Origin: a virus
Lineage: Duplodnaviria; Heunggongvirae; Uroviricota; Caudoviricetes
Direction: 5' to 3' (one strand)
IMG/VR virus record: IMGVR_UViG_3300045988_163275
Coordinates: 1 to 64,000 of that record
DNA length: 64,000 nt
The notes beneath the pieces are model-generated. The model was not told the origin of the DNA. It ran no database searches and saw only the letters and a program-made list of their open reading frames with translations. The number at the start of each line of letters is the position of its first letter. The first letter of the stretch is position 1. The position numbers and the translations under genes were made by a program. This document shows, piece after piece, positions 2,600 to 64,000 of the stretch.

Positions 2600-5500
2600 T
2601 TAACTGATGCCCGACATGGAAAATGCGCCACTTCCACGGCTGATTAGCATCACGGGCGAATAAATATGTGTCTGTGATGAACTGGTCACTTTTACCGTAA
2701 CAGCAACAGTTCTTGAGGTAACATTGTTAAAAGCAGCGTAAAGAGTGCCACCGACGCCTGTAGAACTTGTCGAATTAAGATCAGGGTCTCTGTATGTTGT
2801 CCCCTTACCAGTGGTTGCGGTCTTCGTCACTCCATTGCAGGTAAATTGGGCTGCAACAGGGCCGACGCCCCCCGTATATACATTTATTGCCACATAAATA
2901 TTTTTGGGCAATGCAGACGAAGAAGAGTCTGTATATGTCATTGTATATGTGCCGTTGTAACGAACTGAGAAGTCATTGCCCACATACATGTTAGCGACAT
3001 CGCCTACGAAGTGATCTGCTTGTACCGTGCCTCTGAATGTTCCGCTGGTAGCCTGTATTTCTCCTGTGAATTTGCCATTTGTTGCGTAAACGGTGCCTCT
3101 AACAGTTACATTGTTAAACTCTGAGTTCCCGTTTTTATTAATATGCCACCCCGTCATCCCGCTTGAGTAATCGTTGGACTGAATGAAGTTGCCTATTTTG
3201 GCGTTATCAATGGTGCCGTTCTTGATATAAGCTCCGTTCATATAAGCCACACCGGCATCAATAACGAATGGCGTTGTAATTTTCCCATTAACGGAGTTCA
3301 CCAAACCAAAGCGATCTGCCTGCACCAAAAACTGCGATAGACCTGTTGTGTCGATGCCCAACGCTATGCCGGCAACATATTTTTGGCCTCCGCTGGTGGA
3401 GGTTTCCATTTTCAGCGTCCAGGCTGTTGATACCTTCTTGTTCGTATCAGCAATAGCTGTGGCCTGTTGTTGAATTGTTGCTGTATTTCCATCTACTGAT
3501 GCTTTTAAGGTGTCAACTCTCCCACTTAGTGCATTGTCGGCGCTTGTACGCGCAGTCGCTTCAGATGTAATCGCAGCATGAATATCTTTGCTCGTTTGAG
3601 CCTGTAGATTAGTGATATTAGAAGCCAAAGCGGAATCAGCATCAGTTCTGGCTTTCGTCTCTTCAGCTACAGCCGCCTTAATATCCTTGCCCGTTTGACT
3701 CTTCAATGTAGTTATCTGTTGTGCCAAAGATTCGTCGGCAGTTGCTCGGGCGTTTTTTTCTTCAGATATAGCGGCACTAATATCGCCTTCAACTTTGGCT
3801 TGTAACGATAGGACTTCTTTTGAAAGTGCTTCATCGGCACTGGCTCGCGCCTCTTGTTCACTCACAATTGCGGCAGAAATGTCATCGTTAATCTTTGATT
3901 CAAGTTTGGTGATTCTGCTTCCAATAGCATTATCCGCATCTACACGAGCCGTAGTCTCTTCAGTGATTGAAGCTCTGATATCCTCATTTATTTCAGCTCT
4001 AATCTCTTCCATTTTCGTAGCCATTGCGGACATATCATCTGCAAAAGCCTTCTGAGTTGTGGCGATCCTGGCATTGCTCACCATCTGTTTGTGCTGGTCT
4101 TCATCCTGACGCAAAGCTAAATCGATGTTTGTTTTAGCCAATGCCTCAATGTTTGTCGTCACTTCGGCACTGGAGTGCTCGACTTCAGCCACGGTTTTTT
4201 TCATCTCTTCAATGGTGGCCAAACTGCTATCTACAGTTGACTTCATTGCCTCGATTTCTTTCGCGTTCGCCAAGTCGCCTTCGACTCGTGCCTCACGTTC
4301 CTCCGCAACTAAAGCCGATGAATTGTCCAGTGCTGCATTCGCGGCCTCAACCGCTCCAGCAACGGCCTTGTCCTGCTCTGAAACAGTTTCCTTCAACTGA
4401 ATTAATGCGGCATTTGAGTTTTCAACCTCCTTAAGAGCCTCTTCCACCTTGCTGGCAGTATTAGAAACTTCCGTTCTAAGAACGTTTTGGGCTTCTTCAA
4501 TCCGTTGATCGGTCTCAGTAAATTTGTCATCAAGGCTTTTCAGGCTTTCTTCCATCTGCTTGTTGATTACGTCGACGGCTTCCTGCGAGGCTTTGGTGTC
4601 GATTTCCTCAAGCAGTTCCTGCCCCAATTCCGAAGAAGTGATCTTCCCGGTCAGGAAAGACAGAACATCTTTCGTCATCGCCTCAGTGCCTAAATTGGAG
4701 TTAGGCTGGCTCAACATTCCGCGTTTGTTTGCTGCACGAACCCAATAGAACCAAGTTTCGCTATCTCCAAGACCTGCGTGCGTAAAGGTGGTACTGGCTG
4801 CTTCGGCAATTAGTTTTGCAGTGTCCAGGTTGTTGGTCCGGGATGCATACACGTTGATGTGATCGAGGTCGATTGAGTCCGGGTTAACCCAATTCAGAAT
4901 CACGTTGCGGTAGTCGCCCACGGCCGTCAGTGCAGTCGGTGCATCCGGCGGCGTCATCGTCCCCTGAACTTTGTAGACGGTGCTGATAATTTCTGTTTTT
5001 TTACCGTTGAATGAAACCGCATACAGTTGGAAGTCGTAGCGTCCATTCTCCGCGACATTAACGATTTCGTATTGCTCTTCGGTTACACGCGCCGATTGCC
5101 AGTTCGATACATTGTTTGCATCAGAACGTCGCCAACTGATCCAATACTCTGGAGATTTCCCTTCCCATGTTGCAGTCAGTTTTACTGACAGGTTGCCCGG
5201 GCTTGAGAGATAAGTCCCTTCAGTGATTTGCAAATTAGACGGCTTGGAGTAAGTCGGGTCCAATACCGTCGTATTCTGCGGGATAAGCGTTGCACCATTG
5301 TCGATCGCCTCATATTTAGACGGATTGTTTTCAACAGCGGTGATGTCAAAGCTACCCGACGTTTCCCCCTGAGCGATGTTAACGATGCGAACGCGCATAG
5401 GTTCGAGATCTGGTTCTGTAATTGTCCAGACACCGTTCAAAACAGGCGTTTCCGCTGACGACAGGGCTTTTGAAAACGTAACTTTTGTTATATTTTCGCC

Positions 5501-39704: not shown

Positions 39705-39745
39705 ATTGTTTAAGGCCACAAATAATGGCCTTATCTGGCTTACGG
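39705..39745. terminator. palindrome plus hairpin between convergent genes
   Basis: TTAAACAAATTGTTTAAGG followed by hairpin AAGGCCACAAATAATGGCCTT, between 3' ends of 39481..39684 (+) and 39740..40444 (-). Confidence 0.4.
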
Positions 39746-40444
39746 AACAGCAGTAATCAGATCGCAAATGCCTGTTTTAGTTAAATCACTATTTAGCTTC
39801 TGAAAATTGGCATTCAGCATTGCGGTATGTATTCGATTCTCAAGTTCAAAGAAGAGATCGATCTTGCCCTCTTTGGCTGCCACCTTCTTCCAAATATTCA
39901 CCTGGTCATCTGCGATACGACTTGCGCAGGTGAACAAGAACGAACTCCCTCTGGGAAGGGATGTCGTGCTGTAGTATTCACCGTCAACTTCAATATACTT
40001 AGCTCGGAATGACTCCAGAGTTAGCTTTTTACCGCTCTCAGCCTGCTTTGTGTCTGCCTTGCTTGTCTTTTCCTGAACTTCAGGCTGTTTCTGCACAGGC
40101 TTTGGTGTCTCATTGACCACCGCAGTGCTGGCCGAACCATCCAAACTCTTGAGGCCATTAATTTGGATTAGATAAGCCAACTCCAGAGTCTTATCACCAG
40201 TGAGTTTTCCACGCATACTTACCCATTGACGCTGAACCGTCTTTAAGGCGTCTGCGTCCCCCGGGTTTGCTTTGAGTGCGTTGGAATAGGTAGAGCTAAG
40301 TTGTTCGTCTAATTTTGACAGGCGTTCGTTATCGCAGATTTTGTGTTCGATTTCTGCCGAAGCCTTTTGGCAGTCAAAGCTGGCTGCAAATACAGCCGGC
40401 GATGCCACCAACAATGATGCCAGTAGGATATTTTTCATATTCAC
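39740..40444 (-). CDS. secreted protein with lysozyme-inhibitor-like (LprI/DUF1311-type) N-terminal domain
   Basis: Signal peptide (MNMKNILLASLLVASPAVFA), then FDCQKASAEIEHKICDNERLSKLDEQLSSTYSNALK...QRQWVSMRG, resembling the Cys-containing DUF1311 pattern; family assignment from memory. Confidence 0.45.
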   Translation of the reverse strand: MNMKNILLASLLVASPAVFAASFDCQKASAEIEHKICDNERLSKLDEQLSSTYSNALKANPGDADALKTVQRQWVSMRGKLTGDKTLELAYLIQINGLKSLDGSASTAVVNETPKPVQKQPEVQEKTSKADTKQAESGKKLTLESFRAKYIEVDGEYYSTTSLPRGSSFLFTCASRIADDQVNIWKKVAAKEGKIDLFFELENRIHTAMLNANFQKLNSDLTKTGICDLITAVP

Positions 40445-61625: not shown

Positions 61626-62681
61626 ATGAGCGTAAACGACAATAAAAACATTGCGATAAGCGAAGCATTTTCCGAAACAGACAAAAAGACCGGCGAAGTT
61701 GTTACGTTAGTTCCTAACACCAACAACACAGTTCAGCCTGTTGCTCTGATGCGTCTTGGTCTCTTCGTTCCGACGCTGAAATCGACATCCAGGGGTAGAA
61801 AGGGGCAAATGGTCTCTATGGACGCCTCCGCTGAACTCAAACAGCTGTCTCTGGCCAAAGCCGAAGGGTACGAGGATATAAGGATTGCTGGTCTTCGTCT
61901 TGATATGGATAACGATTTCAAAACATGGGTGGGCATCATCCACGCGTTCGCCAAGCACAAGGTTGTTGGTGACACCGTCACGTTGCCGTTCGTCGAGTTC
62001 GTCAGACTTTGTGGCATACCAACAGCCAGATCGTCCGCGAAGTTACGTAAGCGCCTGGACAGCTCTCTAAGTCGTATCGCCACAAACACCATCTCATTCC
62101 GCAGCAAAGGCTCTGAAGAGTATTACGTTACGCACCTTGTGCAGACGGCAAAGTACAGTACCAAGAATGACACGGTCGAACTGAAGGCCGATCCTAAGAT
62201 TTTCGAACTTTACCAGTTCGACAAAAAGGTGCTTTTGCAACTTCGGGCCATCAACGAACTCTCCAGAAAGGAATCCGCGCAGGCGCTCTACACCTTCATT
62301 GAAAGTTTGCCACCAGACCCGGCGCCAATCTCATTGGCTCGCTTACGCGCCAGACTTAACTTAACCAGCCGCACCATTACCCAGAATGCGACAGTCAGGA
62401 AGGCGATGGAGCAACTGCGAGAGATCGGCTATCTCGATTACACTGAAGTGAAACGCGGCAGCTCGGTCTACTTCGTCATCCACTATAGACGGCCGAAGTT
62501 ACGTTCGGCACTGCCGCCATCTATGGCCACGCCTGAAGATCCAGAAGATATCTTGCCAGGTGATGATCCGGAGGACATTATCGATGTTGCTCCTGAAGAA
62601 AAAGACGGGGAAATGGTCATGTTGAGCAAGGAAGAACTGGCGATTCTCGAAGAGCTGCGCAAGGCAAAGGCTCGCAAATAG
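61626..62681 (+). CDS. repA: iteron-binding replication initiator (P1/RepFIB-type RepA)
   Basis: N-terminal [21 protein letters not shown] and central [78 protein letters not shown] resemble RepFIB/P1 RepA; flanked by iteron arrays. Confidence 0.85.
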
Positions 62682-62684
62682 CCC

Positions 62685-63245
62685 AACCACTGTAGAGAGT
62701 AAAAAGGCTCACTATCCACTGTAGTGAGCCTTTTTGTTTATCGGAAATGCAATATCCACTGTAGTGAGTAAAAGAAACCGAAGAATAACCACTGTAGGCA
62801 GTGCGCACAAATCGCGAAGTAAATGTTAGTGGTTGCAAACATAGATAAAACAAGGGCTGAGAGGTTAGCGGTCACTGGGTATCCATGTTAAGTCTACTCT
62901 CTACAGCGGTTATCGTCGCTCTCTTCATTGTTGACTATCCACTGTGAAGAGCAGAATTGGCTGACTTGACCTTTATCCACTGTAGTGAGTGGATATCTGT
63001 TTAAAACAGCGAAGATTTACTCTCCATAGTGGATATCCGCTGGAGGAGGCATTCCATCACTCTCTATAGTGGTTGTTTGTAGTCAGTGAACGCCTGTTTA
63101 CTCACTACAGTGGATAGTTGATATCGTGGCAGAGGGTTTGCTCACTACAGTGGTTGGGGTGCATACCTGAAGGGTGTTCTACTCGCTACAGTGGTTATGA
63201 GCCGGATTCACACACGGTGAGCTGGCTACTCACCGCAGTGGATAG
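62685..63245. repeat. iteron array downstream of repA (incA-like)
   Basis: About 13 copies of the same CCACTGTAG core in both orientations (e.g. CTCACTATCCACTGTAGTGAG; CTCACTACAGTGGATAG). Confidence 0.8.
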
Positions 63246-63250
63246 TGTTA

Positions 63251-63466
63251 TCAGTGGATTTTCTTCAGCAGACCCCAGAGTGTCCCGGCCTTCGTTGCGA
63301 GCTTACCTGTTTCCGGATCGTACATGTGCCATTCACGTCGCTGGTGGACAATATACCCATCTTCACGTTCCAGTCGTTCCAGTACGCCGGACTGCTTGAA
63401 CCCTTTGGCACGCCAGTAGCCGCTTGTTTTTTCGATTTCCAGACCTGTCAGTGTAACCGCCATCAA
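63251..63466 (-). CDS. hypothetical small protein
   Basis: 71 aa; last gene of a three-gene operon ending at the downstream iteron array. Confidence 0.35.
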   Translation of the reverse strand: MMAVTLTGLEIEKTSGYWRAKGFKQSGVLERLEREDGYIVHQRREWHMYDPETGKLATKAGTLWGLLKKIH

Positions 63467-63798
63467 CTAATCTCCTTGCAGTCATCGAAAAGGTAGCTGT
63501 CGTTCTTCGCGTGAACGCCGTATACATCACCCGATTTGTTGTAAACGAACCTATCTTTACCTACGCCAGATAGTTCGCCGTTACGTTTAGTGAGAAACGG
63601 GGAAGACAGGACGCGATCATCGCGTACCACATAAAACTGTTCGCCGCGGTCCACAACCATCGCGCCGTAATTAGCTTTAACGACGTTACGGATCAGGCCG
63701 TTTTTCGCTTCGACCACAAACATTTCGCACTCATAGACATGTGTGTCCGCAAAGACGGGGAGAGTGAGCAGCGCCAGTACCAGGGCTGTTTTCTTCAT
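63463..63798 (-). CDS. secreted small protein
   Basis: Signal peptide MKKTALVLALLTLPVFA; mature part about 94 aa with 2 Cys. Confidence 0.45.
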   Translation of the reverse strand: MKKTALVLALLTLPVFADTHVYECEMFVVEAKNGLIRNVVKANYGAMVVDRGEQFYVVRDDRVLSSPFLTKRNGELSGVGKDRFVYNKSGDVYGVHAKNDSYLFDDCKEIS

Positions 63799-63974
63799 GC
63801 CACGACTCCTTTGAAAACGCCTAATGCTGAGTCGAAGACCAGTACTACGGCCAGCGCATTGATCATCACATCATTAACAGGCGCCAGCGCTTTACGGATT
63901 GCCTCTGTGAAGATGCAGTCGAGCACAAAGGCTATCGAGATAATAAGTAACGTAATATCTAATAAAATTTTCAT
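63795..63974 (-). CDS. small membrane protein (59 aa; below ORF-track cutoff)
   Basis: Minus-strand translation MKILLDITLLIISIAFVLDCIFTEAIRKALAPVNDVMINALAVVLVFDSALGVFKGVVA; stop overlaps the ATG of the next gene. Confidence 0.35.
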   Translation of the reverse strand: MKILLDITLLIISIAFVLDCIFTEAIRKALAPVNDVMINALAVVLVFDSALGVFKGVVA

Positions 63975-63995
63975 GATAGGTAAATGCTAACTTAT
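63975..63995. repeat. TAAGTA-type palindrome
   Basis: gataggtaaatgctaacttat; immediately upstream of the 59-aa membrane ORF. Confidence 0.45.
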
Positions 63996-64000
63996 ATATT

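Follow-up and report, generated by a model that had tools for sequence, protein, structure and literature searches.

Superinfection exclusion in phage T4 involves Imm, a small membrane protein, and Sp, a periplasmic inhibitor of the tail lysozyme; the imm and sp genes are neither adjacent nor coupled, and Sp is helical. In phage P1, the C1 operators are 17-bp asymmetric sites scattered before many phage transcription units, and the same phage encodes a small protein, Cra, for which the annotation gives only a ‘putative cre associated function’. We have analysed a stretch of 64,000 nucleotides (hereafter, the window) of the virus record IMGVR_UViG_3300045988_163275 from IMG/VR (Caudoviricetes), at the end of which lie three small genes, designated g1, g2 and g3, coding for a hydrophobic peptide, a secreted protein and a homologue of Cra, respectively. 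The trio is a core cassette of phage-plasmids of the SSU5/pHCM2/pMT1 type and has a control element of its own. The explanation that we favour, with a probability of about 0.35 for the package as a whole and a lower one for any specific activity, is that of a core, coupled cassette switched by the phage, with g1 and g2 acting at the envelope and g3 acting separately.

The region is 99.6% identical to Escherichia coli plasmids of approx. 105–185 kb (IncFIB/IncY, non-mobilizable), it is syntenic with Salmonella phage SSU5 and Escherichia phage Cyrano, and the other genes of the window include those for a portal protein, minor tail protein L, dam, thyA and an sbcD-like nuclease; taken together, this identifies the element as an SSU5/pHCM2/pMT1-type phage-plasmid. 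The open reading frames (ORFs) g1, g2 and g3 follow one another in this order, head to tail, on the minus strand (Table 1). The stop codon of g1 overlaps the start of g2 (ATGA), and the stop codon of g2 shares a single base with the start of g3 (TGATG, if g3 is taken from the ATG at 63463). An AAGGAG motif is located 7 nt before the start of g2 and another 8 nt before the ATG of g3, and inspection of the sequence at g1 revealed no Shine-Dalgarno motif. All three are genuine, translationally coupled genes, and their products are therefore probably made together. A first-pass annotation of this stretch had described an operon in which the gene for a hydrophobic membrane peptide is coupled to that for a secreted protein and a further small gene follows, with which the ORFs, their overlaps and the selection acting on them agree. 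The third gene is likewise real, but the length of 71 aa assigned to its product follows from a TTG one codon upstream, as chosen by the ORF lister, whereas the RefSeq start is the ATG, giving 70 aa.

Selection was assessed by the Nei-Gojobori method (NG86), with the annotated frame set against two shifted frames, in comparisons with SSU5 (89% DNA identity), Cyrano (75%) and a Klebsiella phage (68%). The ratio of nonsynonymous to synonymous substitution rates (dN/dS) in the annotated frame was 0.09–0.37 for g1, 0.05–0.20 for g2 and 0.04–0.13 for g3, the most conserved gene of the trio, with synonymous sites being frequently saturated between the window and the compared phages. In the shifted frames nearly every comparison, for all three genes, gave a ratio close to or above 1. 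Purifying selection acts on each of the genes, and in its own frame only; their lengths and overlaps are, furthermore, identical in the three phages. All of the products have RefSeq entries as ‘hypothetical protein’ (WP_023135695 for g1, WP_023135694 for g2 and WP_001711118 for g3), their PHROG families (2535, 2077 and 804) are of unknown function, and some PLSDB records annotate only two of the three genes. The 59-aa ORF, earlier put forward as one that had been missed, is thus real, as judged by its frame-specific purifying selection, but it is not new, having both a RefSeq entry and a PHROG family of its own; it merits consistent annotation, and no toxin label.

The trio was found in 787 PLSDB plasmids, among them those of Klebsiella (312), Escherichia (226), Enterobacter (91), Yersinia pestis (63) and Salmonella (49). 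Using distant homologues of g2, we retrieved the diverged lineages L011, L012, L013 and L017, in which the gene order is a protein of 89–90 aa (PHROG 2209), a two-helix peptide of 45–51 aa, g2 and a Cra-like protein of 66–70 aa; in L011–L013, the three that reach the rep gene, the cassette converges on a Rep3 gene. The trio adjoins the replicon in every SSU5-type lineage examined, despite saturated synonymous divergence. The upstream 91-aa gene (PHROG 2209) is degraded in the Klebsiella lineage, in which the trio is intact, which marks the trio as the constant core. We found no description, in the annotation or literature searched, of the trio as a coupled cassette that is conserved at the edge of the replicon in every SSU5-type lineage examined.

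Only 26 nt of the sequence upstream of g1 are contained in the window, and for this reason the first-pass annotation could see neither the control element nor the 91-aa gene. The 40 nt between that gene and g1 are near-invariant (ATTTACAGC-AAAAATATATAAGTTAGyATyTACCTATCATG), and this invariance spans E. coli, SSU5, Cyrano and the Klebsiella phage, with the flanking synonymous sites being saturated. In the 99.6%-identical plasmid p2017-01-4CC_1 (L001), a promoter-like TTTACA-N16-TAGCAT is present upstream of g1 (TAG(C/T)AT in relatives), its -35 hexamer lying beyond base 64000 and being visible only in relatives. As the -10 hexamer ends 9 nt before the ATG of g1, the messenger RNA (mRNA) would be almost without a leader, which fits the missing Shine-Dalgarno motif; from the sequence we infer a promoter and a near-leaderless start of g1. 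Distant lineages have the element followed by a leader of 15–20 nt with a Shine-Dalgarno motif. In p2017-01-4CC_1 itself the start codon of g1 is GTG, not ATG (L001 2349), from which weaker translation would be expected, if the mRNA is nearly leaderless. We also considered the element as a half-iteron, i.e. a RepA-regulated promoter; this was rejected, as the iterons of L012 (CATACCTCAGTCAA) are quite different and the element is kept there.

In the 3' part of the control element, a palindrome copy overlaps the -10 hexamer (TAGCAT) and runs to the ATG of g1. In its perfect form the palindrome has 18 bp, TAGGTAAGTAyTTACCTA, with the halves TAGGTAAGT and ACTTACCTA (also written TAGGTAAGTACTTACCTA), and it is dispersed over the window: the 20-nt consensus, with up to three mismatches, gave 16 matches (about 10 sites, most of them counted on both strands) against 0.03 expected, and for the 9-nt half-site, with 0.38 occurrences expected, we counted 10. 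Most sites are situated within approx. 60 nt upstream of gene starts, those of portal, dam and thyA included, and the starts of the sbcD-like and MazG-like genes are 126 nt and 245 nt, respectively, from the nearest site. The palindrome shows no preferred orientation relative to the downstream gene; a directional phage promoter is unlikely, since the best-matching strand ignores the direction of that gene. The distribution of the sites points to a putative operator of a dimeric phage regulator, which would control many phage units. The copy at g1 is conserved in all lineages examined, with SSU5, Cyrano and the Klebsiella phage among them, and was located in the sequences L001, L002, L003 and L006. 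Because the palindrome also fronts phage units, the cassette looks wired into the phage programme, and not into plasmid maintenance. The sequence of the palindrome is not mentioned in the literature searched, and the presence in the cassette of a copy of a phage-wide palindromic site, found neither in the annotation nor in that literature, is new.

Table 1. Positions of the cassette, its control element, the neighbouring replicon and the dispersed palindrome in the window.
Feature	Position	Strand	Description
g1	63974..63795	minus	59 aa, ATG start; hydrophobic peptide, PHROG 2535
g2	63798..63463	minus	111 aa; secreted protein, PHROG 2077
g3	63463..63251	minus	70 aa from ATG (TTG alternative 63466); cytoplasmic Cra homologue, PHROG 804
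Control element	63975..64000	minus	Truncated by window end; palindrome copy TAAGTTAGCATTTACCTATC at 63994..63975
Palindrome sites	2508, 22359, 41709, 46155, 47350, 48408, 53251, 54526, 59958, 63975		Weaker site: 9312
repA	61626-62681		Rep3 WH1/WH2 domains
incA-like iteron array	62684..63246		13 iterons, 6 in plus and 7 in minus orientation; core (T/A)ATCCACTGTAG; downstream of repA

The product of g1 is predicted from its sequence to be a two-helix inner-membrane peptide. Its grand average of hydropathy (GRAVY) is 1.59, the 19-residue Kyte-Doolittle maxima are 2.57 (residues 3–21) and 2.19 (residues 36–54), both above the threshold customary for membrane helices, and the predicted membrane helices cover approx. 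residues 3–23 and 36–57, the two hydrophobic segments being separated by the loop EAIRKALAPVND. The loop motif, (R/K)KA(L/F)(A/E)P(V/M)xG, is the best-conserved part of a family alignment with a mean column identity of 87%, and is kept in the distant 45–51-aa counterparts of L011, L012, L013 and L017. The match of g1 to PHROG 2535 has an E-value of 3e-32; at E ≤ 0.1, g1 and g2 matched only families 2535 and 2077 and one further family of unknown function (E 0.04). In the Enterobacter-type lineage L011 (approx. 3950–4100) the gene caller stretched g2 to 155 aa and overlooked the 49-aa counterpart of g1, which is in another frame.

The g2 product begins with a Sec signal peptide (MKKTALVLALLTLPVFA, followed by D; predicted cleavage between VFA and D). 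Its AlphaFold model (predicted local distance difference test, pLDDT, 87) is a small ten-strand beta-barrel, and two invariant cysteines, Cys24 and Cys107, are located in the first and last strands. We predict an exported periplasmic beta-barrel, which is probably disulfide-bonded. The fold resembles periplasmic barrels, lysozyme inhibitors included, and the viral structure library returned, as the best matches, uncharacterised secreted proteins of phages and ‘lipoproteins’. Pfam gave no match to g2 at E ≤ 1, nor did a search of PDB sequences with the family profile at E ≤ 10, and homology to the E. coli lysozyme inhibitor MliC was rejected (hhalign probability 7%). The family is small, with 25 of 1.84 billion cluster representatives at E ≤ 1e-3; several of the 25 are fragments and one, a repeat protein of 744 aa, looks spurious, and all convincing members have approx. 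110–118 aa, a signal peptide and two cysteines. A borderline relative, P0119 (E 4e-4), whose gene is part of a module for phage tails, was set aside as too distant. It should be added that the window encodes a secreted protein of 234 aa (39740–40444, minus strand) with an N-terminal LprI (lysozyme inhibitor) domain (Pfam E 3.6e-5), annotated as LprI family by RefSeq in a near-identical plasmid; its kinship with g2 was also rejected (hhalign 7%).

Homologues of g2 occur in two further settings. In the unrelated Pantoea phage PdC23, the homologue gp49 is translationally coupled to a small membrane peptide that is not homologous to g1. The unit gp50–gp48 (L008 4717–5443), in which gp49 has on one side a 76-aa protein with LLKKVH at its C-terminus and on the other the coupled 46-aa single-helix peptide, is divergent from a gene for a Cro-like regulator; gp50 was rejected as a homologue of Cra (hhalign 1.4%), the C-terminal LLKK(I/V)H being all that is common. 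A distant g2 homologue is located approx. 800 nt from a gene with a Tlde1 domain, i.e. a peptidoglycan-targeting effector domain, in a Pantoea island. This chromosomal island (Pantoea sp., L016 1176–3211, next to an integrase) encodes the Tlde1-domain protein and, after it, a 104-aa membrane protein, the distant g2 homologue and a secreted protein of 117 aa, and could be effector-immunity-like.

Sequence comparison identifies g3 as a true homologue of Cra, a kinship not recognised in the first-pass annotation: tblastn gave 41% identity to the P1 protein (E 8e-5; 39–41% over near full length), hhalign a probability of 98.3% (E 1.6e-14), and both proteins match PHROG 804, g3 with an E-value of 5e-34 and P1 Cra with one of 1e-34. 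The g3 motif is LE(I/L)EKxxGYWRAKGF, of which GYWRAKGF is common to P1 Cra. It is the profile evidence tying g3 to Cra that is new; some phage records already carry the label ‘Cre-associated’. The model of g3 is mediocre (pLDDT 71) and matched no known fold in a structure search, and searching PDB with the family profile returned only noise. The homology names g3 without explaining it. The two proteins are alike in size (73 aa in P1, 70 aa for g3) and both are encoded on phage-plasmids. However, P1 cra (207–428) stands alone just upstream of cre (436–1467) and lox, whereas g3 stands last in a coupled trio by the replicon, and no recombinase gene was found next to g3 in the window or in the relatives examined. 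One could suppose that all three products serve, with Cra, in a single regulatory pathway of the cytoplasm or membrane, for instance in the control of recombination or of lysogeny establishment. The strong conservation of g3, its clear homology to Cra and the tight coupling, which suggests co-production, would suit such a pathway, but the solitary position of P1 Cra by cre, the lack of an adjacent recombinase here and the export of g2 do not; the P1 annotation of a ‘putative cre-associated/regulatory function’, which suggests such a pathway, is itself only a guess. We consider a common pathway unlikely.

In our favoured explanation, the switching of the cassette would follow the phage programme and not plasmid maintenance, g1 and g2 would work as a pair at the envelope of an infected or induced cell, and g3 would have a separate cytoplasmic role, common to P1 Cra. 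The role of g1 and g2 would most likely be in blocking phage entry, or cell-wall damage by incoming phages or other peptidoglycan hydrolases, in the manner of Imm and Sp of T4, to which they are unrelated. We propose, with low confidence, an envelope-level protection or exclusion pair accompanied by a Cra-type protein, because both products are predicted to be envelope-located and the fold of g2 is lysozyme-inhibitor-like, because in PdC23 the g2 homologue is again coupled to a small membrane peptide, and because a distant homologue is found near a Tlde1-domain gene in Pantoea. A function in entry exclusion, which the first-pass annotation gave as an alternative, or in superinfection exclusion would be compatible with the evidence. 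On the other side, the fold of g2 is generic, and the settings in PdC23 and near Tlde1 were each seen only once. The palindrome copy at g1 has three mismatches and one degenerate half-site, so that regulation there may be weak. Furthermore, Cra of P1 occurs without g1 and g2, and g2 of PdC23 without Cra; the products thus need not act in one pathway. Lastly, the literature on Cra, on the SSU5 phage-plasmids, on pMT1/pHCM2 and on the motif gave no functional or expression data for the trio.

A bolder and, in our estimate, doubtful extension is that g1 and g2 form an Imm/Sp-type envelope lock of unrelated sequence, turned on via an operator regulon, palindromic and hitherto undescribed, that would control the whole SSU5/pHCM2/pMT1 phage programme. 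Here g1 would anchor, or be a partner of, the g2 barrel, which would inhibit the hydrolase with which incoming phages attack the cell wall, or other weapons directed at peptidoglycan, and read-through into the incA iterons could also couple the switch to copy number.

The downstream end of the cassette bears on a further alternative. The stop codon of g3 (63251–63253) is 4 nt from the last iteron (63226–63246) and a terminator scan detected no terminator-like site between them, in line with the earlier statement that the cassette reads into the iteron array. By eye, we noticed a hairpin, AAAAAGGCTCAC-(iteron core)-GTGAGCCTTTTT, at approx. 62703–62737, just after the repA stop codon, not flagged by the scan, the loop limit of which it exceeds; with T-runs on both strands, it could terminate both the repA and the leftward trio transcripts. 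Transcription of the trio would probably run on through the iterons up to this hairpin. Another possible explanation is therefore a replication switch, in which transcription from the palindrome-controlled promoter through the iterons would displace RepA, relieve handcuffing and link induction to copy number, the trio proteins being secondary to transcription. The short distance from g3 to the array, with no terminator predicted before it, and the recurrence of the convergent order of trio, iterons and rep in the diverged lineages that reach the rep gene would be expected from such a switch. However, the shared arrangement may just reflect conserved gene order, in L012 g3 and the first iteron are approx. 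190 nt apart, with other sequence between them, and strong purifying selection on all three proteins means that the proteins matter in themselves. Such a switch is improbable as the main role of the cassette.

An accessory role in lysis timing, with g1 as a holin- or antiholin-like protein and g2 modulating the phage's own endolysin from the periplasm, is likewise improbable. A small two-helix membrane protein next to a periplasmic protein of lysozyme-inhibitor-like fold, apparently co-regulated with lytic units, is what this would predict, but there was no match to holin, antiholin or spanin families of PHROG at E ≤ 0.1, g1, as read from its sequence, has no charged C-terminal tail typical of holins, and the cassette is situated beside the replicon and DNA-metabolism genes, and not by an endolysin gene.

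Least probable of all is the suggestion, made in the first-pass annotation, of a stability or post-segregational killing module, with g1 as a membrane-damaging toxin that is restrained by a partner and kills plasmid-free cells: g1 is short and very hydrophobic, short hydrophobic peptides are often toxic when over-produced, and the cassette adjoins the replicon, but none of the three proteins has a match above cut-off in Pfam, NCBIfam or PADLOC, toxin-antitoxin and defence families included, Rfam gave no match at E ≤ 1, Sok-like RNA included, g1 is coupled to a downstream gene for a secreted protein and not to one for a labile antitoxin, the trio is a core syntenic set in every lineage examined, toxin-antitoxin modules being usually accessory, and its palindromic control site is common to phage lytic units. 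Consensus scans, in themselves weak tests, indicated no antisense promoter-like site within g1 in L001, and the sole plus-strand match at the window end (63973–64000) points away from g1. The PADLOC match of g1 to typeIV_Cas5 (E 1.2e-4) is spurious, being seen in 1 of 14 members of the g1 family. With the Hok/Sok system the cassette shares a short hydrophobic peptide encoded on a plasmid; g1 differs in its two hydrophobic segments with a conserved charged loop, as opposed to the single helix of Hok, TisB and Ldr, in that no antisense RNA, antisense promoter or mok-like leader ORF accompanies it, in its coupling to downstream genes and in being core.

The 91-aa gene of PHROG 2209 (L001 2389–2664) is situated just past the window end, 40 nt upstream of g1 in relatives, and has its own, second copy of the palindrome upstream, and a Shine-Dalgarno motif. 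Its product (89–91 aa) is acidic and conserved, contains a CW(Y/H/N) motif, has no Pfam match and precedes the trio in most lineages. Upstream of this gene, E. coli relatives have a variable insertion spot (L001 2700–8375; L005 5240–14100) with insertion sequence-like fragments, a group II intron and a type I restriction-modification system; its counterpart in SSU5 holds NinX-like and SPFH genes.

Phage-plasmids of the SSU5 type are common in clinical Enterobacteriaceae and include pHCM2 of Salmonella Typhi and pMT1 of Yersinia pestis. Defining the roles of the membrane peptide and the periplasmic barrel would fill in a core part of these elements, and knowledge of the palindromic regulon would help in understanding how they switch between plasmid and phage life. 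If true, envelope protection by g1 and g2 would be a new version of a known kind of system; otherwise, these are ordinary small phage genes.

Among known systems, the lysozyme inhibitors MliC, PliC, PhiA and ACP are, as predicted for g2, small periplasmic beta-barrels with a disulfide, but g2 has no sequence homology to MliC/PliC and does not contain their conserved lysozyme-binding motifs, SxSGAxY and YxxxTKG. The palindrome resembles the C1 operators of P1 in being a short conserved site repeated before scattered units of a phage-plasmid, the trio included; it differs in its sequence and in being an 18-bp perfect palindrome, whereas the P1 sites are asymmetric and of 17 bp. Imm and Sp of T4 have no sequence relation to g1 and g2, and the predicted barrel of g2 contrasts with the helical Sp, an inhibitor of a peptidoglycan hydrolase. 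The likeness to the T4 proteins is one of layout, in that a small inner-membrane protein and a small periplasmic protein with a signal peptide are both part of a phage programme.

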